A DNA stretch of 64,000 nt, taken from positions 323,890-387,889 of the forward strand of contig CAYNKA010000003.1 of the NCBI GenBank assembly GCA_964397655.1, read 5' to 3'. The notes below the pieces were generated by a model that had not been told where the DNA came from, ran no database searches, and saw only the letters and a program-made list of their open reading frames with translations. The position numbers and the translations under genes were made by a program. Shown here piece by piece: positions 766-62,500 of the stretch; position 1 is the first letter of the stretch; each line of letters starts with the position of its first letter. This stretch comes from an uncultured Spirochaetaceae bacterium. Its GTDB lineage: Bacteria; Spirochaetota; Spirochaetia; DTKZ01.

Positions 766-1134
766 CTAACTCGCCTTCTTCCCCTCCACCAGCTGGGTGA
801 GCTCGTCACGGGAGACGGCTTCCTCGTCCGTGAAATACAGGAAGGTCTTTCCCTTCTCCATTCCGCCGTGGCCTGAAAAATAAAAGAAGAGGAGATCCTC
901 CGATCCGACCTTCAAGTTCTTCATGGCCGTCCGTAGATTCGCGGAAGCGGCGCTTTTCCCTTCGAGAACCGAAGCCTCCACATTGACGATGCCCCGCGCC
1001 TTCAGCCGGTCCAGGAATTTCTGCACGATCGCCTTGTCTCTACCGAATATACCGGCGGCCCGGAGCCGCGTCAGAGGGAAATCGGGTAGTTTTCGGGTAA
1101 GTCGGCGGCCGGAGACCCGCGACGACCGCGGCAC
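766..1134 (-). pseudogene. Truncated caspase-domain (peptidase C14) fragment, His half only
   Basis: The translation contains DLLFFYFSGHGG, the His-box region of a caspase p20 fold. It lacks the downstream catalytic Cys box. The ORF stops at TAG 766 with a second stop three codons later, exactly where the AT-rich blc islet begins. Confidence 0.5.
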
Positions 1135-1228
1135 GTGCTCTCGGCTCGGCTCGGAAGATTGACCCTCCGCCGCCCGCTGCGCGATAATTCATTTGAGAGC
1201 CGTCTTCGCGACGGCAAAGGAGGCTGCG

Positions 1229-1825
1229 ATGAAGGCAGGAAACGTGTTCATCGTGACGCTTCTCTCGACGCTCGTCGATCTGCTCGGAGCCGAGACCATC
1301 ACGACGCTCGATTTCGACTCGGTCAAAGCGGTTCACGGCAGGGTCGTCGCTGCGGGCTACCTCGCGAAGTTCGGCATCGCCTTGAGCGACGTGACGCCGG
1401 GCACGCTGGTCGTGATCGACGACGCCAAGAATTTCTACGGAGGAAGGGCGCTCGCCGCCCGGTCCGCCCCCAACGTCCTCACCCAGATAAACTCGAACGA
1501 TCCGGTGAGTTATACGCTCAGGCTTCCGTCCCCGGTCCGGTCGGTGCGGTTCACCAGGCCAGCCCTGCTCGCCGGCCCAACGGGCATCACCTTTCCCCAA
1601 TGGAAGGCCGAAGCCCTCGACGAAGCGGGGAGGCTTCTTTCCCGGACGGGCGAGCCCCTGGGAAGCGGAGCCGCCTATTATTCCGACGTCCCGGCAAAGA
1701 CCTTCGACCTGGAGGGACCGGGGATCAGGGCGCTGAGATTCAGTTCGAACAACATGCATTTCGCCGCATTCAGCGCCCTCGCGATCGACGATCTCGTCCT
1801 CGTCGGCGAGTCGAAGGCGGAGTAG
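1229..1825 (+). CDS. Hypothetical exported protein, first gene of the WD40-caspase operon
   Basis: SD AAGGAGG lies 6 nt upstream of the ATG at 1229. The N-terminus MKAGNVFIVTLLSTLVDLLGA is signal-peptide like. A 4-nt gap separates it from the next gene. High GC3. Confidence 0.6.
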   Translation: MKAGNVFIVTLLSTLVDLLGAETITTLDFDSVKAVHGRVVAAGYLAKFGIALSDVTPGTLVVIDDAKNFYGGRALAARSAPNVLTQINSNDPVSYTLRLPSPVRSVRFTRPALLAGPTGITFPQWKAEALDEAGRLLSRTGEPLGSGAAYYSDVPAKTFDLEGPGIRALRFSSNNMHFAAFSALAIDDLVLVGESKAE

Positions 1826-1829
1826 CCTC

Positions 1830-4800
1830 GTGTGGAATAAGAGGATCCCGATCGTCGTTCTCACGGCCCTGGCCGTCGCCGCGGCGCTTTCTGCCGGAGA
1901 CGCGGAAGTCGTCGTACAGACCGGACACGCGGGACAGGTGAATTCCTTCGCCGTCAGCCCCGATTCGAGGCTCGTGGCGAGCGCCGGCAGCGACGGCACG
2001 ATCGTCGTCTGGAGCGCGTCGACGGGAAGGCAACTCAGGACCTTGAAGGGCCATGCGTCGCAGGCGATGTCCGTGGCATGGGGCGGCGACGGGAGCCGCA
2101 TCGCGAGCGGAGGCACCGACGGGACCGTCCGGGTATGGATCGCGGCGGACGGGCGCGAGGAGCGCCGTTTCCGAGTCTCCGCCCCCATCGTCGATTCCGT
2201 CGCGATGAGCCGGAACGGCGGCATCCTCGCGGCAGGCGGCAACGACGGAGCGATCCGGCTCTGGGACCTCGGCTCCGGAAGGGAACTCGGGACCCTCGCC
2301 GGCCACGCGGGCAACGTCGCGGCCCTCGCCTTCGATCCCACCGGCGCGTTCCTCGCGAGCGGGAGCTACGACCACGAGGTAAGGATCTGGGACGTCGGCA
2401 CCGGCCGGACCCTCAGACTGCTCGAGGGGCATCCGGCCGCGGTGATGGGAACTGCGTGGAGCAGGGACGGCCGCTGGATCGCGAGTTCGGGCGGCGGGTA
2501 CGCCGGGGCGGCGACGGTCATCGTATGGGACGCGGAAACCGGAAAGGCCCGTCACCGCTTCACCGTGAACGACGAGTGGGTTTCCTCGGTCGTGTTCGGT
2601 CCGGACGGAAGGTACCTCATAGGCGGCACGAACACGCGGGGAAGGGCCCTCCGGGTGTTCGATCTCGCGAAGGGAGCCGACGCAGGCACCCTCCGAACGA
2701 ACACGGACGCGGTCTTCTGCGTGGGCTTCAGCCCAGACGCGAAGTTTTTCGCCTACGGAGGCGCCCGCGACGCCGTCACGATCGTGGATGCGAAGACCTG
2801 GAGGGAAATCCGGACGTTGGAAGGGCTCGTCCGCGGGACGAGTTCGACTGCGGTCGGCCCGAACGGGGACATCCTCGCGAGCGCGTCGGAAGACTCGATC
2901 CGGATCTGGGATCTCCGCCGGGCGAAGGAGACGCGCAGGATAGCAGCGGGAAGCTACGTCGCCGCGGTCGCCTTCTCGCCCAGGGGCGATCTCCTGGCCG
3001 CGGCCTGCCGCGACGCGACCGTCGGCCTGTGGAACCTCGCGGACGGCAGGAAGGTCCGCACCTTCTCGGGCCACAGGGCCGCGGTTCGCTGCGTCGCCTT
3101 CGATCCTTCGGGATCCGTCCTCGCGAGCGGAAGCGACGACTCCACGGTCAGGCTCTGGAACGTCGCCTCGGGCGAACTCGTCCGTACGCTCGCGGGCCAC
3201 GCCGATTTCGTCCATGCCGTCGCCTTCGGCCCCGACGGCAGCTTCCTCGCCTCGGGCAGCGGCGACACGACGATCAAGGTCTGGGACCCCGGGACGGGCG
3301 GAGAGCTCGGGACCCTCGCCGGCCACGAGAACTGGGTGGAAGCCCTCGCCGCCGGGCCGGACGGCAGGTCCCTCGTCTCCGGGAGCGGCGACGAAACCGT
3401 GAAACTCTGGGACGTGGAGAAGCGGATCGAGACGAGGACCTTCGCGGGGCACACGGACCGGATCGCCTCCGTAGCCCTGGCCGCGGACGGAAAATCCGCC
3501 CTTTCGGGGAGTGAAGACGGCAGGCTCATCGTCTGGGACCTCGCCTCGGGCAGGGAGACGCTCCGGATGGAAGGAGCGGCCGGGGGGATCGTTTCCGCCG
3601 CCTTCGAACCGGACGGAAGGGCCCTCGTTTCCGGGAACAAAGACGGTTCGGTGAAGATACGGAACCGGAAAACCGGCGCGGAGATCGCCTCGCTCATCGG
3701 CTTCAGGGACGGGGAATGGATCATCATCACCCCCAAAGGCTACTTCGAAGCATCCCCCGGGGGTGCGAAACACCTCAACGCGAGGATCGGCGACGAGGCC
3801 TACGCCATAGACCAGTTCTACGCGAAATTCTACCGGCCAGAACTCGTCCGGGCCGCCCTCGCCGGGGGTGCCGTGCCGGAGGGCGAAACGCTCAAGACGG
3901 TTCTCGCCGAACGGAGCGCTCCGGAGGTCGAGATCCTCTCGCCCCGGAACGGAGAAACGACCGAGGCTTCGAGCGCGGCCCTCGACCTCCGGATACGGGA
4001 CACGGGCGGCGGCGTGGGCGACGTCCTCGTCTACCTGAACGGCTCCCAGGTGGCGAACGAGACTCGCGGCCTCTCGGTCCGGCCCGAAAGGCCCGACCCC
4101 GTGAGGCTGAGGACCCTGACGCTGCCCCTCGTCGCGGGCGAGAACTCGATCAAGGTCGTGGTCCTGAACCGGGACGGCTCCATGGAGTCGAACCCGGCAG
4201 TCGTCGTCGTGACGTCGAAGGCCGTGCTCTCGAAGCCGAACCTCTACGCGCTCGCCGTCGGCATCGACACCTACAGGAACGAGTCCATTTCGCTCGCCTA
4301 CGCGGTCAGGGACGCCGAGGCCTTCGCCGAGGCCCTGAAGTACAGCTCGGCGCCTCTCTTCGAGCGGATAGAGGTCGAAGTTCTCACCACGCCGGAGAAG
4401 ACCACGAAAGAGGCCGTGGTCAAGGCCCTCGAGAGGATGAAGGCGAAGGTGAAACCGAACGACTTCTTCGTCTTCTACGACGCCTCCCACGGAATCGTGG
4501 AAGAGGAGGGGGACTCGCAGTATTTCCTGCTCACGAGCAACGTCCTTCTCCTGTCCTCGAGACGCATAGCGGCCGACGCGCTGAGCCAGAAGGAACTCGC
4601 GAGCCTCCTGGGAGGCATCCCCGCCGAGAAGAAGCTCGTCGTCCTCGACACCTGCAACGCGGGGAAAGGCGGAAAGGAGATCGCTGCGGCTCTCATGAAG
4701 ACTCGCGGCCTCACCGAGGCGACGGCGATCAAGCTGCTCAAGCGGGCCATCGGCTCTGCCGTCTTCGCCGCCTCGTCGGACACCCAGCAGGCGCTGGAAG

Positions 4801-5009
4801 GCTACAAGGGGCACGGCCTCTTCACCTACGTCCTCATCGAGGGGCTCAGGGGCAAGGCCGACACGAGGAACGACGGCTTCATCACCGTACTCGGCCTCGC
4901 CGAATACGCGGAGGAGGAGGTCGTCCGCCTCTCCGAGGAAGTGTTCAAGCGCCAGCAGACTCCCACCATCCAGACGAGCGCGAACTTCCCCATAGGCAAG
5001 GTGCGGTGA
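1830..5009 (+). CDS. Secreted WD40-repeat (~14 blades) protein with C-terminal caspase-like peptidase C14 domain
   Basis: N-terminal signal peptide MWNKRIPIVVLTALAVAAALSAG. Repeated GH..xV..VAFSPDG...ASGS.D.T[IV][KR][LV]W[DN] WD40 units run through residue ~600. The C-terminus has caspase dyad motifs FVFYDASHG (His) and VVLDTCNAG (Cys). Confidence 0.9.
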   Translation: MWNKRIPIVVLTALAVAAALSAGDAEVVVQTGHAGQVNSFAVSPDSRLVASAGSDGTIVVWSASTGRQLRTLKGHASQAMSVAWGGDGSRIASGGTDGTVRVWIAADGREERRFRVSAPIVDSVAMSRNGGILAAGGNDGAIRLWDLGSGRELGTLAGHAGNVAALAFDPTGAFLASGSYDHEVRIWDVGTGRTLRLLEGHPAAVMGTAWSRDGRWIASSGGGYAGAATVIVWDAETGKARHRFTVNDEWVSSVVFGPDGRYLIGGTNTRGRALRVFDLAKGADAGTLRTNTDAVFCVGFSPDAKFFAYGGARDAVTIVDAKTWREIRTLEGLVRGTSSTAVGPNGDILASASEDSIRIWDLRRAKETRRIAAGSYVAAVAFSPRGDLLAAACRDATVGLWNLADGRKVRTFSGHRAAVRCVAFDPSGSVLASGSDDSTVRLWNVASGELVRTLAGHADFVHAVAFGPDGSFLASGSGDTTIKVWDPGTGGELGTLAGHENWVEALAAGPDGRSLVSGSGDETVKLWDVEKRIETRTFAGHTDRIASVALAADGKSALSGSEDGRLIVWDLASGRETLRMEGAAGGIVSAAFEPDGRALVSGNKDGSVKIRNRKTGAEIASLIGFRDGEWIIITPKGYFEASPGGAKHLNARIGDEAYAIDQFYAKFYRPELVRAALAGGAVPEGETLKTVLAERSAPEVEILSPRNGETTEASSAALDLRIRDTGGGVGDVLVYLNGSQVANETRGLSVRPERPDPVRLRTLTLPLVAGENSIKVVVLNRDGSMESNPAVVVVTSKAVLSKPNLYALAVGIDTYRNESISLAYAVRDAEAFAEALKYSSAPLFERIEVEVLTTPEKTTKEAVVKALERMKAKVKPNDFFVFYDASHGIVEEEGDSQYFLLTSNVLLLSSRRIAADALSQKELASLLGGIPAEKKLVVLDTCNAGKGGKEIAAALMKTRGLTEATAIKLLKRAIGSAVFAASSDTQQALEGYKGHGLFTYVLIEGLRGKADTRNDGFITVLGLAEYAEEEVVRLSEEVFKRQQTPTIQTSANFPIGKVR

Positions 5010-5036
5010 GGGCCTCCGCGGAAACCGGAAAGAATT

Positions 5037-6209
5037 TCAGGAGCTGAATTTCCCCTCGGGCGGTCTGTCCCGCTTTCCGCGCTCGAAGGAGATCGATTTC
5101 GTCGGGCAGACTCCTATACAGGTCCCGCACGCGAAGCAGTCCGGGATCGTCCGGTCCCTCCGGAGGATCGCCCCCATGACCGAAGAGGGGCAGGCCTTCT
5201 CGCAGCTTCCGCAGGCCGTGCACGAGGAATAATCGACCTTTATTTTCCAGATGCTCGCCTTCTCCGCCAGCCATCCGGCGAGGCCGAAGGGGCAGAAGAA
5301 ATGGCACCAGGGCCGGTATACGAAGAGGGATGCCGCGAGAAGGACCGCGAGCGCCGCGATTCCGGAGACGAGCAACTTCGCCGGGTTGAAGATCTTGAAG
5401 GGGTCGATCGGCTCCACGATGTCCGCGGACCACAGGAACGCGACCACAACGATCGCGACGAGAAAAACGATCCGGACGGTGTTCGATACGGCGAACGGCG
5501 CCTTGATCTGCGGCAGCAGGCCCTTGGTGTCCTCCCTGTTCCTGCCGAGCCGGAACAGCAGGTCCTGCAGGGTGCCGAACTGGCAGCCCCAGGAGCAGAG
5601 GAACTTGTTGAGGACGATCGTACCGCCGACGAGCATGACGAGGAAGGCGACGAGTCGGGGCGGGAACACGGCTCCGCTTCGCGCGAAGAGGACGATCGCG
5701 TCCTTCACCGTGCCCATGGGACTCGGGTCCGAGCCGAGGACTACGCCGAAGACGAAGACGCCGGCGCCGAGAAGGCCGAGACGGAGCTTCGGGCCTATCC
5801 TTCCCGCCCGGAGGAGACGGAAAACGACGAAGAGAAAGACCGCCCAGCCGGCGAATTTTGCCGCGATCTTCTTCCAGTTCTTCGACTCCTCTTCGCGCTC
5901 GAGGGCCGAAGCCTTCTTCGCCCCGTCCGCGATCTCGGCCGTCGACAGGCCGGTCTCCGAAAGCCGCTTCCGGAGATCGTCCTTCGACGCCGGTTTGAAC
6001 ATCTTTTGGACGGTTTCCTTCGAGAGCGAGTTGGCGGCGGCGAATTCCTCGATAGTCATGTCCCCCCGGACCGTGATCTCGGACGGGACCGGAGCGGTCT
6101 CCGGCTTGCCTCCCCAGAGACTCATGGAAAGATGGGACAGGGCTGCCGCCACCGCGACCGCGGCGAGCGAGACGACGAATACGCCGAGAATCGACTTTTT
6201 GTTTCTCAC
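5037..6209 (-). CDS. 4Fe-4S ferredoxin-type polytopic membrane protein (NapH/MauN-like)
   Basis: GTG start with a GGAGGTG SD. Multiple TM helices. Cys clusters CHFFCPFG, CTACGSCEKACP and CFACGTCIGVCP. Confidence 0.85.
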   Translation of the reverse strand: MRNKKSILGVFVVSLAAVAVAAALSHLSMSLWGGKPETAPVPSEITVRGDMTIEEFAAANSLSKETVQKMFKPASKDDLRKRLSETGLSTAEIADGAKKASALEREEESKNWKKIAAKFAGWAVFLFVVFRLLRAGRIGPKLRLGLLGAGVFVFGVVLGSDPSPMGTVKDAIVLFARSGAVFPPRLVAFLVMLVGGTIVLNKFLCSWGCQFGTLQDLLFRLGRNREDTKGLLPQIKAPFAVSNTVRIVFLVAIVVVAFLWSADIVEPIDPFKIFNPAKLLVSGIAALAVLLAASLFVYRPWCHFFCPFGLAGWLAEKASIWKIKVDYSSCTACGSCEKACPSSVMGAILRRDRTIPDCFACGTCIGVCPTKSISFERGKRDRPPEGKFSS

Positions 6210-6264
6210 GGATCACCTCCGGAATATACTATAAGCGCAGCACGCTCCCGGCGCAAGGAACGAC

Positions 6265-6291
6265 AAAAAAGCGGTCCCTCGGAGGTACCGC
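6265..6291 (-). terminator. Rho-independent terminator downstream of the aldo-keto reductase gene
   Basis: Hairpin GCGGTCCC-tcgg-aGGtACCGC. On the minus strand it is followed by a T6 run (A6 at 6265-6270 on plus). Confidence 0.5.
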
Positions 6292-6347
6292 TCGATACTG
6301 CGACGCGCCCGCCTTTAATCTCGGAAAGCGCCGGGTTCGTTATTCGT

Positions 6348-7334
6348 TCAAGATATGGCTTCCACGTCGGCCCGCATCTTCGCGATGTCCGCGGCCTCCA
6401 GGGTGACGCTGCCGCCTCCGACGTTCTCCTCGATCTGCGGAATCTTCCGGGCTCCGCAGAGCACGTTCACGTTGCTTCCCGTGCCCTGGGCAGCGGTCCA
6501 GGCGATGACGAGATGGGTCATCGTACAGGAGTATTTTCTGCAGAGCGGTGCCCATTTCTCGGAAAGCTCGACGACCTTCACCAGGTTGTCCTTCTCGAAC
6601 CACTTGATCTTACTCTTGGCGAGACCCATGTTGACCGGAGTCCCGGGCTTGTACTTTCCGGTGAGGATCCCCCGTTCGAGCGGGGAATAGGCCTGGAAGG
6701 AAACGCCGTTCCGCGCGCAGAGGTCGAAGAATTTCTTCTCCGCCCCCCGGTCGAGCATGCTGTACTTCTCCTGGATGATGTCGAGCTGGCCGTACTTCGC
6801 GTATTCCTTGAACTGCTCCTCGTTGAGGTTCGAGGCGCCGATCGCCCGGATCTTACCCTGCTTCTTGAGATCCATGAGAAAGCCCATCGTGTCCGCGATC
6901 GGACAGGGGAATTCCGGAAGCGCCTGCCAGTGAACGATGTAGATGTCGATGTAGTCGGTCCTGAGCCGCTTCAGGCTGATCTCGAGCTCTTCCTTGAGCC
7001 GCTCGGGCCGGGAATTGCGGACGATCCTGACCCCGTCACGTTCCATGAGCAGGGCGCCTTCCTTGATGTCCCAGCGAATCCCGCATTTCGTGGAAAGAAC
7101 GTACTTGTCGCGGCGGCCTTCGAGCGCCCTGCCCACGACCTCCTCGCCGTGGCCGAGGCCGTAGGCCGGAGCCGTGTCTACCAGGGTGATGCCGAGTTCC
7201 CTCGCCTTGTGGATGGTCCGGATCGACTCCGCGTCGTCGCTCGGCCCCCAGTTGCTGTCGCCGCCGATGGCCCATGCGCCGAGGCCCACGACCGACGCAT
7301 CGATGCCTGACCTGCCTATCTTCATCTGCTTCAT
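6348..7334 (-). CDS. Aldo/keto reductase family oxidoreductase
   Basis: AKR motifs LVDTAPAYGLGHGEEVVGRAL, IDIYIVHW and GASNLNEEQ. Length 328 aa. Confidence 0.9.
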   Translation of the reverse strand: MKQMKIGRSGIDASVVGLGAWAIGGDSNWGPSDDAESIRTIHKARELGITLVDTAPAYGLGHGEEVVGRALEGRRDKYVLSTKCGIRWDIKEGALLMERDGVRIVRNSRPERLKEELEISLKRLRTDYIDIYIVHWQALPEFPCPIADTMGFLMDLKKQGKIRAIGASNLNEEQFKEYAKYGQLDIIQEKYSMLDRGAEKKFFDLCARNGVSFQAYSPLERGILTGKYKPGTPVNMGLAKSKIKWFEKDNLVKVVELSEKWAPLCRKYSCTMTHLVIAWTAAQGTGSNVNVLCGARKIPQIEENVGGGSVTLEAADIAKMRADVEAIS

Positions 7335-7438
7335 ATCGGACTCCTTTCAGGTTTTTCGTTTCACGCACGGACCAGGAAGGCTCGGCCACGGACGGCCGAT
7401 TTCCCGGTCACTGCCCGATGATCATACCAATTACCGAG

Positions 7439-7449
7439 TTGTATGACAA
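7439..7449. promoter_or_regulatory. Palindrome TTGTatgACAA, candidate GntR-type operator upstream of the AKR gene
   Basis: Perfect 4-bp inverted repeat with a 3-nt spacer, about 100 bp upstream of the AKR start. A GntR/FadR-family regulator is encoded nearby. Confidence 0.3.
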
Positions 7450-7485
7450 CCCGTCGACATCTCCCACGTGCCCATGAGATGAAGC

Positions 7486-7513
7486 GAAAAAAACGGCCCC
7501 GATTTCGGGGCCC
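7486..7513 (-). terminator. Rho-independent terminator after the aldolase/TRAP operon
   Basis: Stem GGCCCC-gatttc-GGGGCC. It is preceded on plus by A7, giving a T7 tract after the hairpin on the minus strand. It sits immediately downstream of the aldolase stop. Confidence 0.55.
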
Positions 7514-7535
7514 GTGCGCGAGGGAAGGGTTCGTA

Positions 7536-8309
7536 TCAGCCGCCCCGAATGAAACCCAAGACTCTCTTCGCTCCCATCGCCATGAAGCTGATGTCGTCGC
7601 CGCAGGAGATGAAATCGACGCCCTTGCCGAGCCACATTTTGAGGTACTCCTCGTCGCCCGGGCCGACCGAGACTCCGCAGGGCTTCCCCGCGGCCTTGCT
7701 GCGGGCGATCGCCCGGTCGCACAGGGCGAGGACCTCGGGATGGGAGGTCTCGCCTATCCGGCCGATCGAGGCGGAAAGGTCGTTAGGGCCTAGGATGAGG
7801 GCGTCGAGCCCATCCACCGACAGAATGCCGTCGATGTTCCTGACGGCGGCCTCGTGCTCGATCTGGACGATCCGGAGGAAGGAGGAATCCGCACCGGCGA
7901 GATAATCCTCCGCAGGGATCGTTCCGTAACGATTGGCCCGTCTCGGACCGAAGCCCCGGACTCCCTTCGGGGGATAACGGCAGGCTGCGACGGCCCGTTC
8001 CGCTTCCTCCTTTGTACACACCATGGGGACGATGATGCCGTCGGGTCCCATTTCGAGGACCGGCTTGATGATCGTCGCGTCGTTCCATACTACCCTGACG
8101 ATCGCGGCCGCCCCGCCGGAGTTCGCCGCGACTATGTGGGCGAGGACCTTCTCCTTGTCGAAGGGGCCGTGCTCCGCGTCTATCCATACGAAGTCGTAGC
8201 CGAAAAAAGCCATGGCCTCGGAAATGGAGGGATCCGTGAGGAAAACGTGCCCTCCGACCGCGAGTTCGCCGCTCTTGAATTTCGCCAAAAGGCCTCGAAC
8301 CTTATCCAT
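7536..8309 (-). CDS. HpcH/HpaI-family 2-keto-3-deoxy sugar-acid aldolase
   Basis: The 257-aa translation matches the HpcH/HpaI aldolase fold, for example DFVWIDAEHGPFD and CGDDISFMAMG. It is co-oriented with the TRAP transporter genes. Confidence 0.85.
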   Translation of the reverse strand: MDKVRGLLAKFKSGELAVGGHVFLTDPSISEAMAFFGYDFVWIDAEHGPFDKEKVLAHIVAANSGGAAAIVRVVWNDATIIKPVLEMGPDGIIVPMVCTKEEAERAVAACRYPPKGVRGFGPRRANRYGTIPAEDYLAGADSSFLRIVQIEHEAAVRNIDGILSVDGLDALILGPNDLSASIGRIGETSHPEVLALCDRAIARSKAAGKPCGVSVGPGDEEYLKMWLGKGVDFISCGDDISFMAMGAKRVLGFIRGG

Positions 8310-9614: not shown

Positions 9615-10129
9615 TTGAACACCTCGGCATTCTTGTGATCGGCGCTGTCGCTGATTTTCTTCATCACCACCTTCACGTCTTCGACGATTTCCGGAACGGT
9701 GTATCCGATGATAGAACAGACGAAGTAGACGAAAGGCATGAAAATGTAGGTATAGGAAATGCGGACCGTTCCCGTCATCTGGAAATGCAGGAACAGGGAA
9801 TATTTATAGGAAGGCACGATGAGGGCGAGAAAGGTGACGACGATGATGAGATTGCCCAATACCCGGCTCATCGCCGCCCGACGAGGTTTGAGCTTGTCGT
9901 ACACCAGGGTGAACTTGACGTGTGACGTCCTCCTCATCGTGTAGCTTGCCCCGAACATGACGAGCCACACGAAGGATACGACGATGATTTCCTGGGTCCA
10001 GGTCAGCGGGTGTTTCACCACATAGCGGAAAAAAACCTGAAGAATGAAGGTGACGAACATGATGACGAAGGCAACGATCGGGATGTAAAGTTCGACTACG
10101 TTTCTGAGGAGATACAGGGCTTTTTTCAT
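9611..10129 (-). CDS. dctQ: TRAP transporter small permease subunit
   Basis: 172-aa, 4-TM protein lying between dctP and dctM. This is the typical DctQ position and size. Confidence 0.85.
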   Translation of the reverse strand: MKKALYLLRNVVELYIPIVAFVIMFVTFILQVFFRYVVKHPLTWTQEIIVVSFVWLVMFGASYTMRRTSHVKFTLVYDKLKPRRAAMSRVLGNLIIVVTFLALIVPSYKYSLFLHFQMTGTVRISYTYIFMPFVYFVCSIIGYTVPEIVEDVKVVMKKISDSADHKNAEVFK

Positions 10130-36142: not shown

Positions 36143-40420
<4,278 letters not shown>

Positions 40421-40427
40421 GGCTGCA

Positions 40428-41513
40428 ATGGAAGAACGAAAACCGACCATCCTGATCGTGGACGACACCGCGGAGAACATCGCCATCTTGAGCGTCCTCC
40501 TCATGGGGACCTACAAGGTGAAGGTCGCGACGAACGGGGAAAAGGCCCTCGAGGTGGCCGCTCAGGAGATCCCCGATCTCATCCTCATGGACGTCATGAT
40601 GCCGGTCATGGACGGCTACGAGGCCTGCCGCCGGCTCAAGGAGAATCCGCTCCTCGCGGACATACCCGTCATCTTCCTCACGGGGAGATCTCAGATCGAC
40701 GACGAGACCATGGGGTTCAAGCTCGGAGCCGTGGATTACATCACGAAGCCGATCAGCCCTCCCATCGTGCTCGCGAGGATCAAGACCCATCTCACGCTCA
40801 AGCAGGCGCGGGACTTCCTCAAGGACAAGAACGAGTATCTGGAGGCGGAAGTCGCCCGGCGCATCCGCGAGATCGCGGTCGTCCAGGAAGTGACCATCAC
40901 AGCCCTCGCGTCGCTCGCCGAGACCCGAGACAACGAAACGGGCTCCCATCTCAAGAGGACCCGTCTCTACGTGGAGGAACTCGCCGAGGTCCTCAAGAAC
41001 CGCGACGGCTACGGGGAAGAGCTCTCCGGCGACAACATCGGGCTCATCGTCAAATCGGCTCCGCTCCACGACATCGGGAAGATCGGAATTCCGGACAACA
41101 TCCTGCTCAAGCCCGCGGACCTCTCCCAGGAGGAGTTCGACCTCATGAAGACGCACACCGCCATAGGCAGGGAGTCCATCATCCGCGCGGAGCGGCTCAT
41201 CGAAGAGCCGGAGACCTTCCTTCGGTTCGCGAAGGAGATGACCTATTCCCACCACGAGCGATGGGACGGCGGCGGCTATCCCGACGGGCTTGTGGGGGAG
41301 GCCATTCCGGTATCCGCCCGCCTCATGAGTCTCGCCGACGTCTACGACGCCCTCGTCACACGGAAGGTCTACAAGAAGGCCTTCCCTCACGACATGGCGA
41401 GAGACGCCCTGCTTTCCGGCACCGGGAAGCAGTTCGATCCGGCGGTCGTCGACGCCTTCATGGCGGCCGAGAACCGATTCAAGGTCATAGTGAAGGAGTA
41501 TCCGGACGATTAG
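40428..41513 (+). CDS. Response regulator with HD-GYP c-di-GMP phosphodiesterase domain (RpfG-like)
   Basis: SD GTGAGG 5 nt before the ATG at 40428. Receiver ILIVDD...LMDVMMPVMDG. HD domain HDIGKIG. GYP motif HHERWDGGGYPDG. Confidence 0.9.
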   Translation: MEERKPTILIVDDTAENIAILSVLLMGTYKVKVATNGEKALEVAAQEIPDLILMDVMMPVMDGYEACRRLKENPLLADIPVIFLTGRSQIDDETMGFKLGAVDYITKPISPPIVLARIKTHLTLKQARDFLKDKNEYLEAEVARRIREIAVVQEVTITALASLAETRDNETGSHLKRTRLYVEELAEVLKNRDGYGEELSGDNIGLIVKSAPLHDIGKIGIPDNILLKPADLSQEEFDLMKTHTAIGRESIIRAERLIEEPETFLRFAKEMTYSHHERWDGGGYPDGLVGEAIPVSARLMSLADVYDALVTRKVYKKAFPHDMARDALLSGTGKQFDPAVVDAFMAAENRFKVIVKEYPDD

Positions 41514-53463: not shown

Positions 53464-53508
53464 GGCGGAGTCCGGGCCCCTCTTCGCCGGCCTCCGGACG
53501 GCCGCCTC
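53462..53508. terminator. Compound hairpin between convergent genes (candidate bidirectional terminator)
   Basis: Outer stem GAGGCGG/CCGCCTC spans both stop codons (U32 TGA and the giant-gene TGA). It encloses an inner TCCGG/CCGGA stem. Confidence 0.35.
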
Positions 53509-56500
53509 ACTTGACCACCATCACCTTTCTGATCTCGTCGATGTCGGGTCCCACGACGCGCACGAAATAGATGCCGCGCGCCACGACCCGGCCTCCCATG
53601 TTTTTCCCGTCCCAGGTATAGGTGTAGCTTCCCTTGCCCTGGTTGCCCCGGTGCAGGACGTAGACCAGGCTGCCGTCGAGCGAGAACACCTGGGCCGAGA
53701 CCATGCCGGACCGCGAGAGCTCGTAGGTGAGGATCGCCTTTTCGGCGTTCTCCGGATTTATCACGTTGTTGAAGATGCTCACGCCGGCCCGCTGGGTCTT
53801 GCCCTTGTCGAGGTTGAAGCTCCAGGGGGCGAGGCTCGTCGGCGTCGAGGCGTCCGTGAGTCTCGCGCAGAACAGGTTCCCGAGCCGGAAGATGAATTCG
53901 ATCTTCTTTCCGGCCTCCATCTCGGAGTCGGTTTCGGGTATGAGGAAATTCCTGAGCGCCCCGGAGACGGAGTACGGGCTCACGCCTCGGGCTCCGGTGT
54001 TCGCGAGGGGGTTGAGCCCCTCGATGCGGATCGGCAACCAGATCGCCGGGAAGTTGACCATCGCGTCGTCGTCGGAGACGTTGAAGTACTTCGAGTCCAC
54101 GTCCGCGTCGAAGAACAGGGTGAGCGGAAGGTTCGTGTAGCCGCTCGCGGCGATCTGCGCCTGGAGGATGACGTCCAGGGGCCTGAGCCGGCCCGTTCCG
54201 TCGAAGGTCCTGAGCGAGGACGAGGTCCCGCCCACGGATTCCGAGTTGATTCCGTCCGAGGCCCAGAGCGGCGAGACCACGCCGAGCCCCACGTCCGTGA
54301 TGCGGTGGACGTCGGTGTCGAGCATGGCGTTCTCGGAGTCGTCGAACACGGTGTTGACCGTCGCCACCTTGAGCGTCGCGCCCACCGCGTCGTTCGCGGT
54401 GATCGCCCGGTTGAGGTTGAACCAGGCGTCCCATACGCTGTTGGAGCTGCTTCCCCGGGTGATCACGTCCATTCCGGTTATGGTGAAGGCGTCGCCCACG
54501 AAGGCGAACTGGGAAGCGCTCACTTGAGCGCTCTTGTCCTTGGAGCCGAAGACCGGTTCGGTGAATTTCACGTACATCCTCGTGTCCCCGACCGATGCGA
54601 GGGTGAGCTGGATTCTGGGAGGCACGCGCTCGATGATAGCGATCGGCGTCGTCGAGGAGGGAAGAAGGTTCCCGGCGAGGTCGGTGATGTACGCCTTCGT
54701 CGCGTCGTAGCTCACGTACATCTCCGTGGTGAGGCCCCAGGGATGGCCCGAATCCGCCAGCGTGAGCGTGAAATAGGGGTCGTCCGGGAGGTTGCCGGTG
54801 AAGCCGGAACTCGCGGGCACGAAGAGGCTGTTGTTGACGTCTGAGATGAGGCCCTGGTTGAAGGTGTTGACGAGGGGGCTCACCCCGACCTGTTCGACGT
54901 AGAAGGCCTCGTATTCGTTGAGCGAATCGAGATCGTAGTTCAGCGTCCTGTCCCTGACGCCGCGCGGGACGTCGGGCTGCCCGATGGACGTGCGATAAAC
55001 GGTTCGTCCCGGCATGTCGGGGTGCGCGAGGGGAACCGTCGTGGTCGTTGGATTCCAGTCCGCGTCCTCCGAGGAGTTGTCCTGGATGAAGAATTCCAGG
55101 CGGTTCACGAGGTTCGTGGTGGTCGTAGCGCGGGAGACTATTTCATAGCTCGTGCCCGGGATGAAGGTCGAGAAGCAGGGCGGGTCCGTGTCCCAATAGG
55201 CGTAGAATCCTCCGCCCAGGGTGTAGGGGACGAAGGTTCCGGCGTAGGGAGCCACGGTGCCGTCCACCGCATTCGGCGTCACGGCCTTGTCGCGAATGAA
55301 GGAATTCGACGCCACCGTGATTCCCGTCGCGGCCGCGGGATTCGGCACGTTCGCATGCCATCCCGGCCACCGCGGGTCCGCGGTGCTGCCGGTGGCGTTC
55401 CAGCCCGAAAGGTAGATCCTGAGCCGGTAGTCGGCCGGCCGGTAGAGGGCGTTCGTCGGATCGATGCCGTCCCTCGCGCCGCGGCTCATGGCGGCCGTGC
55501 CCGTGTAGGTGTAGGAAAAATAGCCCGCGACGGTCGCGGTGCCGGAGGAGGCCGTCATATCGCCCCCCCACTTCGACGCCGCGTCGAAGGCGGCCTGGGC
55601 TCTGACGTTCGAGGCGGGCGAGCCCGCTCCCGCGAGCATCGCGGCGTCCGTTCCGACGTCGACCCGCTCCGAGTAGTAGAGATCGAAGAAGTTGTGCGCG
55701 TCGAAATGCGTGGAGGCCGGCGTCGAGTGCGGCGCCCGTCCGTACTCGATTTTCCAGAGCACGGGGCCTGCACGGTCCACCGTGGCGGTGTAACTCGCGA
55801 AAGTGTTGTAGCCGTAGCTCCTCGCGGGGTTCTTGTGACTGTCGAAGAAGGCGGTCTTCCGGAAGAACAGGTCCGGGAGGTTCGTCTTGTGCGTGCCGGT
55901 CCGGTCGGTGCTCGCAGCCTGCCCTTCGACGGGAGCTGCGCCTCCCGAGCCGACGGCGTCCGTGTTCCAGGTCCCGCCGACGACCGTGGTCCGCACATAG
56001 AAGGACGTGAGGTCGCCCTGCCCGTTCGTCGAGGTCGTACAGAGCGCGTCGGTGAAGGCGTCCGCGAAGACGAGGCCCGCTCCCCCGCCCGGCGTCGTCA
56101 GGGCGCCGGTATTCGTGTAGGACATGGAGGCCGCCGCGAGGGCCGCGTTGATCTCGTCGTTCGAGTTCTCGATCGCCTTGTTGAAGGTGAGTCTCACCAC
56201 GTTGTCCTTCACGGTCTCGACGAGAACGAGCTCCGGTCGGAGAAAGTCCCAGCCCGTGTTGTTTCCGCCGTCCACGACGTTGTTGTTCGTCTCACCGGCC
56301 TTCACGGATGCCGCGGAAACCCAGCCGCCCTCTGCGTCCGTGTCCGCGCCGTCCGCGGAAGAGAGCGTGCACCAGCTCACGGTCATGTTGAGGGCGACCG
56401 CGTACGAGGATGTGCCCCACATGGTCGCCGTGGCGGCTGCGGTGTAGTTGAAGACGGGGTGGTTCATGGAGTTGTCCGGGATCGCAAGGGTCCAGGCAGC

Positions 56501-59500
56501 GCTCCCGGTCATGGAGGTCCCGTTCACGTAGAAGTTGCCGTCGACACTGATCGTCGATCCGTCGAGCGGCGACAAGGCGAAGGCCGGGGCCGGCCCCCCG
56601 AAGGCGACGACGCTGTTCGCGGCGGCCGTCCCGCCCCCCGGAAGGTAGGCGATCCCGGTCTGCGTGTAATAGGCGAAGCGCGTGTCGTCGGAATCCGCGA
56701 TGTTCGTATCTCCGTTCCCGTCCCAGTCGGGATCGTTCGCGTCGTAGGCCGCGCCGAACAAGGCGAAGGCTCCCGTCGTCGAGAGGGTCCTGCCGTTGAG
56801 GTTCGCCGTTCCCCGGTAGCCCAGGAAACGGCCGCACGACAGGTTCGTGACAAGCCTGACCGTGACGCCCGGCGTGTCGAAGTAGAGCGTCGTGCCGGGA
56901 AGACTTATCGTCCCCGCCCCTGCGTCCCAGTCGCCCGACACGGTCGTGCGGAGGCGCAGGCCTCCGGCGGTCGCGGTGTAGGTCTGTCCGTGGCTCGAGA
57001 CGTAGTGCGTCCCGTCGAGCTCGACGTAGCCCGTCGCGGTCACGCCCACGGTCCCCGCGGCGCTCGCGACGCCCGGCGAACCCGTTCCCGAGCCGATGCC
57101 GCCGAGGACGACGTTGTTTCCCGAGATCGTGAGGCTCTCGAGGGCGGTCGCGGTCGATGTTCCGATGATGCCGGACACCGTGACGTCGCCCGTTCCCGCC
57201 GCGAGGCTGAGGAGCTCGGTCCCGGTTCCCGTGCCCGTGATCGTGGAACCGAAGGAAACATTCCCCGTCGCCGCGCCCGTATTCATCGCCACGTCCCCGG
57301 TGAGGGTCACGGGCTGGGCGTTGAACGATATGTTGGCGTTGTTCGTCGCGATGTCCCCTGCGATGCTCACGGCGCCGGCTCCGGTCTTCGTGAAGGCCCC
57401 CGCGAGATTGAAGTCGGCCGCGGTATCGGCGGCTCCGCCGACGTCTTCGACGGTGAGGAGCCCGCCGTTCGACAGCGTCACCCCCCCTCCTGCCGCGGTC
57501 GTCACCGTGTTGTGAAAGGTCATGGCTCCGGTCGTCGTCAGGTCGATCCCGACCCCTGCCAATGCCTGGCTCGTGTTCACCGGCTGGAAGAACTCTATCG
57601 TAGCGACGGTCCCCGTCGTCACGATCCTCGAAGCGAAAACCTCGCCGTTCCAGGTAACCGCGGCCCCGCTCACGACCGTGAGCACGCCGATCCGGTTCGC
57701 CCCGGCCGCCCCGCCGATCCGCCCGTTCGCGGCCCCGCTCGCGGCTCCGAAGCTCACGTTCCCCGTTCCCGCGGTCACCGTGAGATCGTAGGGCGTGCCC
57801 GGACTGTCTATCGTCGCGGCGTTCGCGAACGAGACGTTCCCGATCCCGGCACCGGTACTCAGCGCCACGGCGCCGGTCAGCGTCACGGGGCCCGCGAACG
57901 AGATGTCGTCGGCCGTCGTCGTGATGTCTCCGGCGGTCGACACCGCGCCCGCCCCGGTCTGCTGGAAGGAACCGTTGAGATTGAAATCGGCTGCGGCCAC
58001 GATGGTGAGGAGCCCGCCGTTCGAAAGGGTGACCCTGCCGTCGCCCGTCGCGGTCACCGTGTTGTTGAAAGTCATGGCCCCGGTAGTCGTCAGGTCCAGC
58101 CCGATCGCCGCGGCAGCGTTCGTGTTCACCGGCTGGTTGAAGACGATCGAGCCCACGGTCCCCGTCGTCGCGATCCTCGAAGCGAAAACCTCGCCGTTCC
58201 AGGTAACCGCGGCCCCGCTCACGACCGTAAGCACGCCGATCCGGTTCGCTCCGGCCGCCCCGCCGATCCGTCCGTTCGCGGCTCCGCTCGCGGCTCCGAA
58301 GCTCACGTTCCCCGTGCCCGCGGTCACCGTGAGGTCGTAGGCCCCGCCTATCGTCGCCGCGTTCCCGAACGAGACGTTCCCGGTCCCGGCACCGGTGCTC
58401 AGCGCCACGGCGCCGGTCAGCGTCACGGGGCCCGCGAACGAGATGTTGCCGGCCGTCGTCGTGACGTCGCCGGCGGTCGACACCGCTCCCGCCCCGTCCT
58501 GCGTGAAGGCCCCGCCGAGGGCGAAATCGGCTGCGGCCGCGATCGTGAGCAGGCCCGTGTTCGTTACGGTCACGGTCCCCGAACTCGCGGTGGACACGGC
58601 GCCGTTGAAGGTGACCGCGGCGCCGTTCAGGTCGAGACCGCTCCCGCCCGTCATGACGAAACCGGCCTGGAAGATGTAGTCCGTTCCCGTCATGTCGTTG
58701 AGCGCTGCCCCGTTCGTGTCCACGGCCTGGTTGAAGGCGGTCGTCCCGGTTCCCGCGATCTGCCGGATCCTCGCCGCGAACACCTCGCCGTTGAAGGTGA
58801 CGTTCGCCGCGCTGTTGATCCTGAGGACGCCGATCCGATTCGCCCCTGCCGCCCCGCCGATCCTTCCGTTCGCCGCTCCGCTCGCGGCTCCGAAGCTCAC
58901 GTTCCCCGTGCCCGCGGTCACCGTGAGGTCGTAGGCCGTGCCCGGACTGTCTATAGTCGCGGCGTTCGCAAAGGTGATGTTCCCTCCGACCCCCGCGGTC
59001 GTGGAAAGCGCGACCGCTCCCGTCAGGGTCACGGCCCGGTAGAAATCGACGTTCCCCGCGTTCGTCGTCACATCGCCCGCGGTGGAGAGCGCGCCCGAGA
59101 GCGTCGCGCCGAAGGCGACCGTCCCCGCCCCGGTTGCCGTGATGTCGCCTGCCGGGGCGATCGTCGTCGTTCCCACGGAGTCGATCGTCACCGCTCCGGT
59201 CGAAACGTTGATCTGGGCGGATAGGTCGACCGTCGCTCCGGCGCCCGTCGCGTCGATATTCACCGCGCCGCTCCCGGAACTCAAAGCCGCAGCGATCGTG
59301 ACGTTCCCCGTGTGATTGATCACGATGTCGTTGTTCGTCGTCGTGATCGTGGCCCCGGTGTTGTCGAAGGTCGTTCCCGCGCTCGAGAAGCCCGAGGGCG
59401 TCGTCACGGTCCCGTTCAGGTCCACGGCCCCGCCGTTCGTGATGGAGAGACTCGCGGCGCTGAACGTGCTCGTCACCGTGACGCCGCCCGAGGCGTCGCT

Positions 59501-62500
59501 CACCGTGACCGTCCCGAGCTGAGTCGCGCCGACCCCTCCCGTGAAGCCGAGACTTCCGGTGCCCGCGTTCAGCGTCAGGGTCTGTCCTCCGGCGGTCGTT
59601 CCCGTGAGCGTCGAGGAGAACGAGATGTTCCCCGCTCCGGCCCCGGTGTCCAGGGCGACGTTCCCCGTGAGCGTCACCGCCCCGTCGAAGCGTATGCCGT
59701 CGTTCGTCGTCGTGATGTCTCCGGCGATGCTCACCGCGCCGGCGCCGTTCTGCAGGAAAGCCCCGTTGAGGCTGAAATCCACGTTCCCCGTATCCGCCGC
59801 GCTCGTCGTGTCCACGATGGTGAGGAGCCCGCCGTTCGAAAGGGTGACCCTGCCGTCGCCCGTCGCGGTCACCGTGTTGTTGAAAGTCATGGCCCCGGTA
59901 GTCGTCAGGTCCAGCCCGATCGCCGCGGCAGCGTTCGTGTTCACCGGCTGGTTGAAGACGATCGAGCCCACGGTCCCCGTCGTCGCGATCCTCGAAGCGA
60001 AAACCTCGCCGTTCCAGGTAACCGCGGCCCCGCTCACGACCGTAAGCACGCCGATCCGGTTCGCTCCGGCCGCCCCGCCGATCCGTCCGTTCGCGGCTCC
60101 GCTCGCGGCTCCGAAGCTCACGTTCCCCGTGCCCGCGGTCACCGTGAGGTCGTAGGCCCCGCCTATCGTCGCCGCGTTCCCGAACGAGACGTTCCCGGTC
60201 CCGGCACCGGTGCTCAGCGCCACGGCGCCGGTCAGCGTCACGGGGCCCGCGAACGAGATGTTGCCGGCCGTCGTCGTGACGTCCCCTGCCGTCGACACCG
60301 CGCCCGCCCCGTCCTGCGTGAAGGCCCCGCTGAGGTTGAAATCCGCCGCGGCGGCCATCGTGAGCAGGCCCGAATTCGTGATCGTCGCCGTACCGGTCCC
60401 GGTGGCGGTCACCGCGACGTCGAAGGTGAAGGCGTTGCCGTTCAGGTCGAGGCCGGCTCCGTTCGTGTTCACCGCCGCGCCGAAGTGCGTGGTCCCGCTC
60501 CCCGCGGTCTGCGACACCGAGGCCGCGTACAGCGTCGAACTCACCGTCACGTCGTTCGCGTTCGTGATCGAGAGGGCGTTGAGCCGGTTCGTTCCCGTGT
60601 TACCCACGGCCCCCGTGAAGGTGATGTTCCCCGCGGCTCCCCCGCTCACCGTGAGGGAGGAGTTTCCTGAGGTTTCGGAATGGACCGTGCTCTGGAACTG
60701 GACGATCCCGCCTCCCGTCGCCGTGACCGAGGTCGCGGTCGCCTGGAGGATCACGGGATCGGAGAAGGTGATGGTGCCGGCCGCTCCGCTCGAGGTCACG
60801 GTCGGCGTCGCGGCCGAGTTGAAGTAGATGTTCCCGCTCGTCGGATTGAGCGTGATCGTTCCCGTGGAGGTCGCGAGCGAACCGTTGATCCGCAGGTCGG
60901 CGGCGGGCGTGAGGTTGATGTAGCCCGTGCCGCCCGAGGCGTTCACCGCGGCCGCCACGGTGAGGTCTCCCGCATTCGTCGTCGCGTCGAAGGTTCCCGT
61001 TACCGTGCATGCGTTCAGGGTATAGCCGTCGGCGTCGTTCAGGGAGACGGCGCCGGCGTTCGTTATCGCGACGGTCGCGAAACCGTTGTCCGTCCTGTTC
61101 AGCGTGATCGAGTTCGTCCCCGCGGCGAGCGTCGTGAGACCCGTCACCGCGACCGCCCCGCTCTGCGTCACGTTTCCCGCGCTCGTGAGCGTGAAACTCG
61201 CGGCGCTCACCGCCGCGAGGAGGGAACCCGAGTCCTCGGTGATCGTCACCGCCCCGCCGGTCAGATCGAGGCTCCCGAAGTTCGTCGTGTCGCCGGCTTG
61301 GTCGCCCAAGGTTATGAGGTTCGCGCCTGCGTTCAGGGTGGCGAGGCCCGTAACCGCGATCGTCGTCGCCGCGGCGTCGGTGATGGTCCCGGCGCTCGTC
61401 AGGGTGAAGAAGCCCGAGGCGTTCACCCCGGTGAGGACCGTTGCCGAGTCCTCGGTCACGGTGACGTTCGTTCCGGAAAGGTTGAGGCTCCCGAAGTTCG
61501 TGGTATCGGTTCCGAAATCGCCGAGTACGATCGTCGTCCCGGCGGAGAAGGTCGCGAGGCCCGTCACGGCGATCGTCGTTCCGTTCGCGTCAGCGATGGA
61601 CCCCGAGCTCGTCAAGGAACTGTTCGTGTTGGCATAGAGATAGGTGATCGTCATGTCCGAGTCCTCGGTGACGGTCACCGTGTTCCCGGTCAGACTCAGG
61701 CTCCCGAAATTCGTCGTGTCGTCGTTGCCGATCGTTATGTCGTAATACGTCCCGCCGTTGTGGGCGTCCAGGGTGGCGAGTCCCCCGACGCTGATCGTCG
61801 TGGTCGCCGCGTCCGTGATGGTCCCTCCCGTCGCGGTGACCGAGAGGTTCGCCGCCGTGTTCACGTTTCCGAGGACGATCGCGTTCACGTCCACGAGGGT
61901 TACGTTGTTCGCGTTCGTGACGACCACGGTGCCGAAGTCGTTCGTCGGGGTGTCGAGGGTGATGTCGTAGTAGGTCGGTCCCGCGACCATCGCCGAGAGC
62001 GTCGTCGTCCCGCTCACGACGAGGGGCTGGGCGTTGTCCGTGATCGTCCCCCCGGCGCTGAGCGTGAGGTTCGTCGCGGTCACGCCGTTCGTGGTCGATA
62101 CCGTGTCGACGACGAGGCCGTCGACGTCCGTGAAGGACACCGTGGCCCCGGTTGCTCCGACCGCGAAGGTGTCCGCGTCGTTCCCGGTCTGCGTGAGGGT
62201 GAAGGTGCCCGCCCCGGTGAGGAGGAGGCCGCCCGTCACGACCGTTCCCCCGGTCTGGTTGACGCCGGTCCCTGTCCCGTTCAGGATCAGGGTCCCGCCG
62301 CCAGTGGCGAGGTTCGAGGCGAGGGTGAGCGAGGGCCCGTTCAGGCTGAGGACCGTGGCCGCGCCGTTCGTGGTGATGTTTCCGTTCACGGTCATCGCCG
62401 CGCCGAGCGTCGTGATCGTGACGTTGCTCGCCGTCGTTCCGGCGGTGATGGGCCCGGTCACGGTGAGGCCGCCGGCCGAGTCGTAGAGCGTGAAGGCTCC

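Follow-up and report, generated by a model that had tools for sequence, protein, structure and literature searches.

Can a protease of the caspase fold, joined to WD40 propellers, be at work outside the bacterial cytoplasm? To our knowledge, the literature treats bacterial caspase homologues nearly always as effectors of cell death, signalling or phage defence in the cytoplasm, and we know of no characterised extracytoplasmic C14 protease. The question is raised by two adjacent genes in a 64,000-nucleotide stretch of DNA (the window) from an uncultured Spirochaetaceae bacterium (GenBank assembly GCA_964397655.1, contig CAYNKA010000003.1, positions 323,890 to 387,889 of the forward strand). The downstream gene encodes a large protein with WD40 repeats, a linker, an Ig-like domain and a C-terminal caspase-like domain, the upstream gene a small partner protein, and both products begin with a putative signal peptide. 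Our reading, held with somewhat better than even confidence, is that the two products would leave the cytoplasm by the Sec route and form a clan-CD protease complex of two subunits, specific for Arg/Lys and active in the periplasm or on the surface of a diderm spirochaete, in which the partner would serve for targeting or binding. The host of the pair is a free-living spirochaete.

The case for export is built on comparison among homologues. In both leaders a basic n-region leads into 12-15 hydrophobic residues, followed by a cleavage motif of small residues (ALSA/GD in the large protein and LLGA/ET in the partner, the slash marking the predicted cut). The leaders thus show the features of a Sec type I signal: n- and h-regions, small residues at -3/-1 and a leader kept in kind among homologues. 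In the AlphaFold2 model of the large protein (alignment of 45 sequences, mean predicted local distance difference test score, pLDDT, 83.6) residues 1-25 have a pLDDT below 50, with a helix at 9-21, and the model of the partner has a low-confidence helix at 6-18 before its first strand at residue 24. Between position 1830 and the first blade there is no in-frame ATG, GTG or TTG; hence, the leader of the large protein cannot be skipped without loss of blade 1. A basic-then-hydrophobic leader is present at all 13 loci with intact 5' ends. The sequences of these leaders are unrelated, and they end a few residues before PELVVQTGH, the conserved first strand. Homologues display cleavage-type sites of the AQA/, AHA/ and SSA/ kind, and some of the more distant relatives of the large protein have lipoboxes (LLNGC, LFAC, LSSC). 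Variable hydrophobic N-termini, followed by a well-conserved 175-residue domain, were likewise seen in 30 of 30 aligned partner homologues.

We infer that both products are Sec-exported, with leaders that are kept in kind though not in sequence. For the large protein the evidence is the leaders at the 13 loci and the absence of an alternative start, and export of the pair is further supported by the occurrence of the partner domain with PEP-CTERM tails and in giant Ig/cadherin-type proteins. The signal peptides that an initial annotation of this locus had predicted on both proteins thereby gain comparative evidence, as they are retained across homologues. Efflux proteins encoded in the window resemble outer-membrane factors, membrane-fusion proteins and, with a match to PF00873, RND transporters; every named relative of the RND protein belongs to the Spirochaetales. 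Given these efflux proteins, the host is a diderm, and “exported” therefore means the periplasm or beyond.

The caspase domain has its catalytic residues intact. Its match to PF00656 covers positions 3-225 of the 233 in the profile and scores 55.8 bits (cut-off 21.4, E 6.8e-15), and the catalytic residues follow the order of C14 peptidases, a His in SHG and then a Cys in DxCxxG. His887, Asp940 and Cys942 are invariant among 13 close and 45 broader aligned homologues. In partner-linked orthologues the His and Cys are found in every case, including those with weak Pfam scores, and the Asp in all but one. The initial annotation had read the dyad (YDASHG...LDTCNAG) as intact and had named its lack of conservation in an alignment as a finding that would speak against its proposal; the alignments show both residues to be invariant. 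A profile of the family reaches the Trypanosoma brucei metacaspase MCA2 (E 1.6e-3), on whose SGHG the His motif aligns. A phmmer search of the PDB sequences with the C-terminal 444 residues gave no match; MCA2 was reached by the family profile only.

Metacaspase structures show that an Asp two residues before the catalytic Cys makes for an acidic S1 pocket and a basic P1 specificity, and the invariant D940-T-C942 has an Asp at precisely this position, unlike the QACRG of caspases. Metacaspases and orthocaspases also process themselves after a basic residue in the loop between p20 and p10. In the large protein the corresponding candidate is Thr958-Arg959-Gly960: T958 and R959 are invariant in the 13 close homologues, and R959 and G960 are conserved to at least 90% in the 45-sequence alignment. 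These residues belong to loop 958-973, which has a pLDDT below 50 and is the sole long disordered loop of the caspase domain. Such a placement is compatible with autoprocessing.

The N-terminal part of the large protein consists of WD40 repeats. The match to PF00400 has an E-value of 7.5e-113, and we counted 14 repeats of 41-46 residues each between residues 27 and 612. The AlphaFold2 model has 56 strands across residues 25-612, which were assigned to 14 WD40 blades, in agreement with the earlier estimate of about 14 blades in two propellers. The repeats would form two seven-bladed propellers, a split that we derive from the repeat number and from alignments of ~280 residues to 7-bladed propellers. 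Beyond the propellers the model has a beta-meander and three helices at 626-698, an all-beta sandwich at 699-796 and the alpha/beta caspase domain at 805-1057. What had been called a beta-rich linker is actually two parts, the conserved linker module with the meander and helices and an Ig-like sandwich. In the family alignment, F625, E629, W630, T634, G637, R669 and P670 of the linker are nearly invariant and G679 is invariant; residues 626-698 matched no Pfam family. A linker of ~75 residues is found throughout the WD40-caspase family and is retained even in members that have no propellers. The Ig-like sandwich scores 23.5 bits against Big_7, just under the cut-off of 24.1, and many homologues are recorded with PF17957.

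The partner gave no Pfam or NCBIfam match. Its fold had been put down as unknown, a description that structure prediction and a fold search have overtaken: on the predicted model, we are confident that it is a beta-jelly-roll of the carbohydrate-binding module (CBM) or adhesin type. The fold neighbours are CBM29, CBM4, CBM22, CBM61, the DUF4465/BtuJ surface binders, MAM domains and the K1 cleaved-adhesin domain of Lys-gingipain. Among 1.84 billion cluster representatives at 50% identity, a profile search returned 749 relatives of the domain at E up to 1e-3, 225 of them at 1e-30 or better. Giant proteins of 2,000-5,500 residues contain one to three copies of the domain together with Big_7, Ig_3, I-set, PKD, cadherin-like, Calx-beta and LamG domains. 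PEP-CTERM tails were seen among the partner relatives only on two divergent ones (P0033 at locus L006 and P0198 at L015; the L numbers are our handles for the loci compared). The window partner itself ends in ...DDLVLVGESKAE, without the succession of PEP motif, transmembrane helix and basic tail that marks PEP-CTERM/exosortase substrates.

The conserved motifs of the partner domain (FD, YLa..G, N.LTQ, FTRP.L.aG, P.W.A.A and DDL) form an identical set in stand-alone copies and in the copies within giant proteins. The motifs are thus ascribed to the fold, or to a ligand site common to both kinds of copy, and not to a caspase-specific interface, and a conserved surface specific to the pair was rejected as a candidate on the same comparison. 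Since the domain is also used in giant surface proteins, a role in binding or targeting is more likely for the partner than one as substrate or inhibitor. The window holds a giant protein of its own, encoded by a 3480-residue open reading frame (ORF) that extends nearly to the window end (53507-63949, minus strand). It has the look of a filamentous surface protein, its Pfam matches are DUF5649 repeats only, and it is without the partner domain.

Do the two proteins belong together? The partner gene has AGGAGG 5 nt upstream of its ATG, and its stop codon is separated by a 4-nt spacer (cctc) from the GTG of the large gene, which has GGAG 7 nt upstream. This layout and spacing had been described correctly, except that the partner is 198 and not 199 residues long. 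With a GC content at third codon positions (GC3) of 0.82 (partner ORF, counted from the listed start TTG 1193) and 0.87 (large gene), the pair is comparable to other genes in the window. Upstream of the pair is a sigma-70-like promoter-like site, identified by consensus match alone, which agrees with the consensus at 10 of 12 positions; two such sites occur in the region against 0.2 expected from shuffles. No convincing terminator was found between the partner gene and the large gene, and the gene on the 3' side of the large gene (5037-6209) is convergent. Because of the upstream promoter-like site, the terminator-free junction and the convergent downstream gene, the pair looks like a single transcription unit with translational coupling.

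The pairing extends well beyond this genome. Close stand-alone partners (roughly 49% or more identical to the window protein) lie directly 5' of a large exported WD40 gene in 15 of 15 informative contexts: the window, L001/L002/L003/L016 (near-identical and counted once), L004, L005, L007, L008, L009, L011, L012, L014, L017, L018, L019, L020 and L021. The genes flanking the pairs are otherwise unrelated between loci and, where complete, the downstream gene of the pair carries the linker and a caspase domain with catalytic His and Cys. The start of the large gene is intact at 13 loci. At seven of these the distance from the partner stop to the large gene is -4 nt (an ATGA overlap); at the remaining six it is 4, 5, 8, 18, 27 and -32 nt. 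The pairs occur in Spirochaetota, Acidobacteriota and unassigned metagenome lineages, one locus being a Mesoterricola metagenome-assembled genome (Acidobacteriota). A scan of species-representative genomes, a collection that does not include the genome of the window, returned two loci, Mesoterricola and a weak Acidimicrobiales match. Pairwise identities of the partner and of the propeller region co-vary (r = 0.64), with higher conservation in the partner (51-77% identity) than in the propellers (37-70%). This genomic-context survey removes the objection, raised with the original proposal, that the partner might be a common housekeeping protein: it is co-conserved and translationally coupled with WD40-caspase genes.

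The association nevertheless has its limits. Beside divergent partner relatives (45% identity or less: L006, L015, L022, L024 and L026), which are PEP-CTERM-tailed, membrane-anchored or multidomain, a WD40 neighbour is absent, and at L013, which holds a relative of the caspase half, there is no partner gene. From these comparisons the partner is dedicated to the two-propeller clade (1,050-1,240 residues) and not to exported WD40-caspases generally; the idea of a dedicated partner thus stands for this clade, but not for exported WD40-caspases overall. Locus L013 (1-14325) is a cluster of exported WD40/caspase paralogues, each gene with a signal peptide or a lipobox, and its members include a 997-residue WD40-PDZ-thioredoxin-Peptidase_C14 fusion and a DUF4384 protein. 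Its 774-residue gene continues in frame from the preceding ORF, a 345-residue signal-peptide WD40 protein, which suggests a split gene or read-through.

Some loci have a further exported protein before the partner. In L007 (1775-3202) and L009 (3-1349), both of Acidobacteriota type, it is a 475-residue protein with no Pfam match (60% identical between the two loci), and in L008 (1250-3082) it is a 610-residue protein with an HExxH motif and weak astacin/matrixin matches. Both proteins are possible third components restricted to particular lineages; the window has no counterpart of either.

How might the two proteins act together? Matched amounts of both would be made from the coupled genes, and the products would come together once exported by Sec. 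Target recognition would then be the task of the jelly-roll subunit and of the propellers, with a glycan or a protein as ligand, and the caspase domain would cleave after Arg or Lys, as the invariant Asp940 sits at -2 of the Cys in the same way as in metacaspases and orthocaspases. The protease is probably a zymogen that would activate itself by a cut at Arg959, within the invariant Thr-Arg-Gly of the flexible loop that joins its p20-like and p10-like parts. The initial annotation had suggested an extracytoplasmic proteolytic or sensing module with an exported partner. The export signals, the dyad and the co-conservation on which such a module depends all hold, so that this core reading stands, while its example of substrate capture by the propellers, with the partner as substrate or inhibitor, is a tentative mechanism; its interpretation is partly supported overall.

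Several observations weigh against an exported Arg/Lys-specific complex. A free catalytic Cys is unusual in an oxidising compartment. The hydrophobicity scores of the leaders (2.0-3.4) are separated only weakly from those of cytoplasmic controls (1.5-1.8) and are not decisive alone. The putative Arg/Lys P1 specificity and autoprocessing are derived from motif position, and conserved adjacency alone is no proof that the partner binds the protease. Furthermore, the large gene is frameshifted in L004 (~9812-9834) and L009 (~2753-3272), which may reflect assembly error or gene decay.

The part played by the partner admits another explanation, a dedicated periplasmic inhibitor or folding chaperone that silences the protease until it reaches its destination. 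AprI and Inh restrain serralysin-type proteases in such a manner, as staphostatins do in the cytoplasm, and a small exported all-beta protein from the same, translationally coupled operon would suit the role. So would the greater conservation of the partner than of the propellers, as expected if it were bound to a conserved part of the enzyme. However, the partner domain and its motifs are also found in giant adhesin-like and PEP-CTERM proteins with no caspase nearby, hence a general binding module fits better than a protease-specific inhibitor, and the fold neighbours are ligand-binding modules rather than known protease inhibitors. We consider an inhibitor or chaperone unlikely, though worth keeping in mind. 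A distinctly improbable reading is one of extracytoplasmic surveillance or defence, in which the propellers, with or without the partner, sense an invader or a damage ligand in the envelope and the caspase cuts envelope targets, as an NTPase-free equivalent of the WD40/STAND-caspase conflict systems. The combination of WD40 and caspase does follow the sensor and effector logic of Apaf-like systems (PMC7159879), relatives form multi-paralogue clusters of exported WD40/caspase genes (L013, with its WD40-PDZ-thioredoxin-C14 fusion), and the propellers diverge faster than the partner. Yet no NTPase, death-like adaptor or EACC1 element is present, PADLOC returns a generic caspase match only, and the surroundings, made up of metabolic genes that differ from locus to locus, do not resemble a defence island. 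There is a slim chance of an NTPase-free envelope device, whose jelly-roll and propellers would recognise a foreign ligand or one associated with damage, such as that of a phage, predator or toxin, and unleash the caspase on envelope proteins; it would be the extracytoplasmic equivalent of apoptosome-like immunity.

The remaining alternatives concern the leader. It could be an uncleaved signal anchor that keeps the protein attached to the cytoplasmic membrane, on the periplasmic side. In the better cleavage motif (ALSA/G), position -3 is occupied by Leu, which is acceptable but not optimal, and some relatives are lipoproteins and likewise membrane-tethered. Against this, the ~14 hydrophobic residues and the small-residue c-region are typical of cleaved Sec signals, and the homologues carry sites of the AQA/, AHA/ and SSA/ type; we give the anchor little credence. 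Finally, the large protein might be cytoplasmic, as most described bacterial WD40-caspases are treated (PMC5756287), with a leader that is an artefact of the chosen start codon and an upstream gene that is an unrelated neighbour. The lack of an in-frame start before the first blade, the leaders of all 13 intact homologues and an adjacency kept in 15 contexts with unrelated flanks leave this reading contradicted at the level of sequence and, in our judgement, barely credible.

With the exported protease complex as the preferred reading, how does it compare with known systems? WD40, found in 10.9% of prokaryotic caspase homologues, is their most frequent accessory domain, and ~15% of these homologues have predicted transmembrane helices, mostly single and N-terminal, which were read in 2012 as probable signal peptides (PMC3501461). 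Our search with the C-terminal half returned 81 relatives, which come from Nitrospirae, Desulfuromonadaceae, Geobacteraceae, Smithella, Syntrophales and Sulfurovum. The arrangement is thus less rare than the initial annotation implied, and exported caspase homologues as such would not astonish a specialist. The described WD40 caspases are treated as intracellular and, where the layout is spelled out (Metacaspase-NACHT-WD40, and TeMC9 with C-terminal WD40), the caspase is N-terminal to the repeats (PMC3501461, PMC5756287). The large protein shares the p20-type His/Cys dyad and the Asp at -2 with these orthocaspases and metacaspase-like C14-WD40 proteins (TeMC9 and the Gloeobacter paralogues; PMC3501461, PMC5756287). 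However, its order is reversed (leader, WD40, C-terminal caspase), and it has an export signal, a conserved linker, an Ig-like domain and a jelly-roll partner gene, all absent from the descriptions in those surveys. An exported WD40-linker-Ig-caspase or a jelly-roll partner is not described in a survey of conflict systems (PMC7159879) or in one of prokaryotic WD40 proteins (PMC5587647), and in the full-text literature outside subscription journals we found no description of this architecture or gene pair.

The Apaf-1-like/STAND NTPase-WD40-caspase and EACC1-associated systems (PMC7159879) resemble the pair in combining a WD40 propeller with a caspase effector, but the pair is without NTPase, adaptor or EACC1 and would be extracytoplasmic rather than cytoplasmic. 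The NCBIfam model NF047832 (caspase_w_EACC1) scores 71.7 bits with the C-terminal part and 69.6 with the full-length protein, well below its cut-off of 140. No NACHT or NB-ARC NTPase is found among the Pfam matches listed (the best 25 of 56 for the full-length protein, those of its C-terminal part and those of four flanking ORFs), and the 14 blades fill residues 25-612 of the model and so leave no room for an NTPase domain.

The closest analogy is with the gingipains RgpA and Kgp of Porphyromonas gingivalis, in which a cysteine protease of clan CD likewise occurs with an Ig-like domain and with jelly-roll adhesins that are attached non-covalently. The protease of the window is nevertheless of family C14 and not C25, it has no C-terminal domain of the type IX secretion system, its adhesin-like partner is a separate gene and not part of a polyprotein, and its WD40 propellers are absent from gingipains; the fold match itself is generic. 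No Peptidase_C25 or type IX secretion families appeared in the Pfam scans, and the resemblance is functional and at the level of fold only. AprI and Inh of the serralysins are similar in being small exported all-beta proteins encoded with an exported protease, but there the protease is a metalloprotease, the inhibitor fold and the gene order are different, and the domain of the window partner is also found in giant surface proteins. The CBM-like and DUF4465/BtuJ-like jelly-roll surface proteins are only 7-13% identical in sequence to the partner.

The locus defines a well-delimited, portable unit of two genes that recurs in several phyla, and its caspase-fold protease with WD40 propellers would be exported together with a jelly-roll partner. 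It would place a protease of the “cell-death” type outside the cytoplasm, and it offers a tractable model for extracellular roles of caspase-fold proteases, for WD40 propellers as extracellular recognition platforms and for the ligand of the partner domain. A by-product is an extracellular domain family of considerable size, with at least 749 representatives at 50% identity, that has no Pfam or NCBIfam model and is also found in giant adhesin-like proteins. The coordinates of all features are collected in Table 1.

Table 1. Positions of the gene pair, its domains and catalytic motifs, and adjacent elements in the window (aa, residues of the encoded protein; slash, predicted cleavage).
Feature	Positions	Strand	Remarks
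Remnant of a second, separately encoded exported caspase (predicted)	766..1134	-	122-aa ORF; homology confined to 773-1041
Promoter-like site TTGACC-18 nt-GATAAT	1159..1188	+	~40 nt upstream of partner start; sigma-70-like consensus match
Partner gene	1229..1825	+	ATG 1229, TAG 1823-1825; 198 aa; predicted exported stand-alone beta-jelly-roll protein
Partner signal peptide (predicted)	1229..1291	+	aa 1-21, MKAGNVFIVTLLSTLVDLLGA/ET
Partner mature jelly-roll domain (predicted)	1292..1822	+	aa 22-198
Large gene, WD40x14-linker-Ig-caspase	1830..5009	+	GTG start; 1059 aa
Large-protein signal peptide (predicted)	1830..1895	+	aa 1-22, MWNKRIPIVVLTALAVAAALSA/GD; cleavage after A19 or A22
WD40 blades 1-7, first propeller	1902..2789	+	aa 25-320
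WD40 blades 8-14 and one further strand (618-625), second propeller	2790..3704	+	aa 321-625; pLDDT 93-98
Conserved linker module	3705..3923	+	aa 626-698; motif starts at F625: FRDGEWIIITPKGYFEAS...FYRPELV
Ig-like beta-sandwich	3924..4217	+	aa 699-796; all-beta in AlphaFold2 model
Peptidase C14 (caspase-like) domain	4242..5006	+	aa 805-1059; alpha/beta fold in model
Catalytic His887 codon (YDASHG)	4488..4490	+	invariant
Asp940-Thr941-Cys942 (LDTCNAG), catalytic Cys with Asp at -2	4647..4655	+	invariant
Thr958-Arg959-Gly960, candidate autoprocessing site	4701..4709	+	between p20-like and p10-like parts; putative function

The second caspase gene next to the pair, which had been noted as degenerate, is just that. 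Its 122-residue ORF matches PF00656 with an E-value of 9.4e-6 over profile positions 39-110 only, and it stops just past SGHG and has no catalytic Cys. The syntenic locus L004 holds an intact caspase of 417 residues with a signal peptide at the same place (6531-7784), of which 269 bp survive in the window. Judged from this alignment, the ORF is a remnant of an exported caspase and not a functioning second protease. The remnant (773-1041, minus strand) is 90% identical in nucleotides to L004 7369-7637, while the surrounding syntenic 6 kb (window 1301-7346) are 74% identical. It is odd that a decaying fragment should be better conserved than its intact neighbours, and recent recombination or transfer is one possibility.

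Two other genes of the window deserve mention. A lipocalin lipoprotein gene (Blc-like, PF08212; 132-686, plus strand) has a GC3 of 0.45 against 0.74-0.90 for nearly all window genes and looks recently acquired. At 36143-41513 (plus strand) the window encodes a 1425-residue hybrid sensor kinase with dCache, PAS, HisKA and HATPase domains, two receiver domains and Hpt. The kinase gene is followed by an overlapping 368-residue ORF, whose N-terminus resembles a response-regulator receiver; both are unrelated to the WD40-caspase pair.

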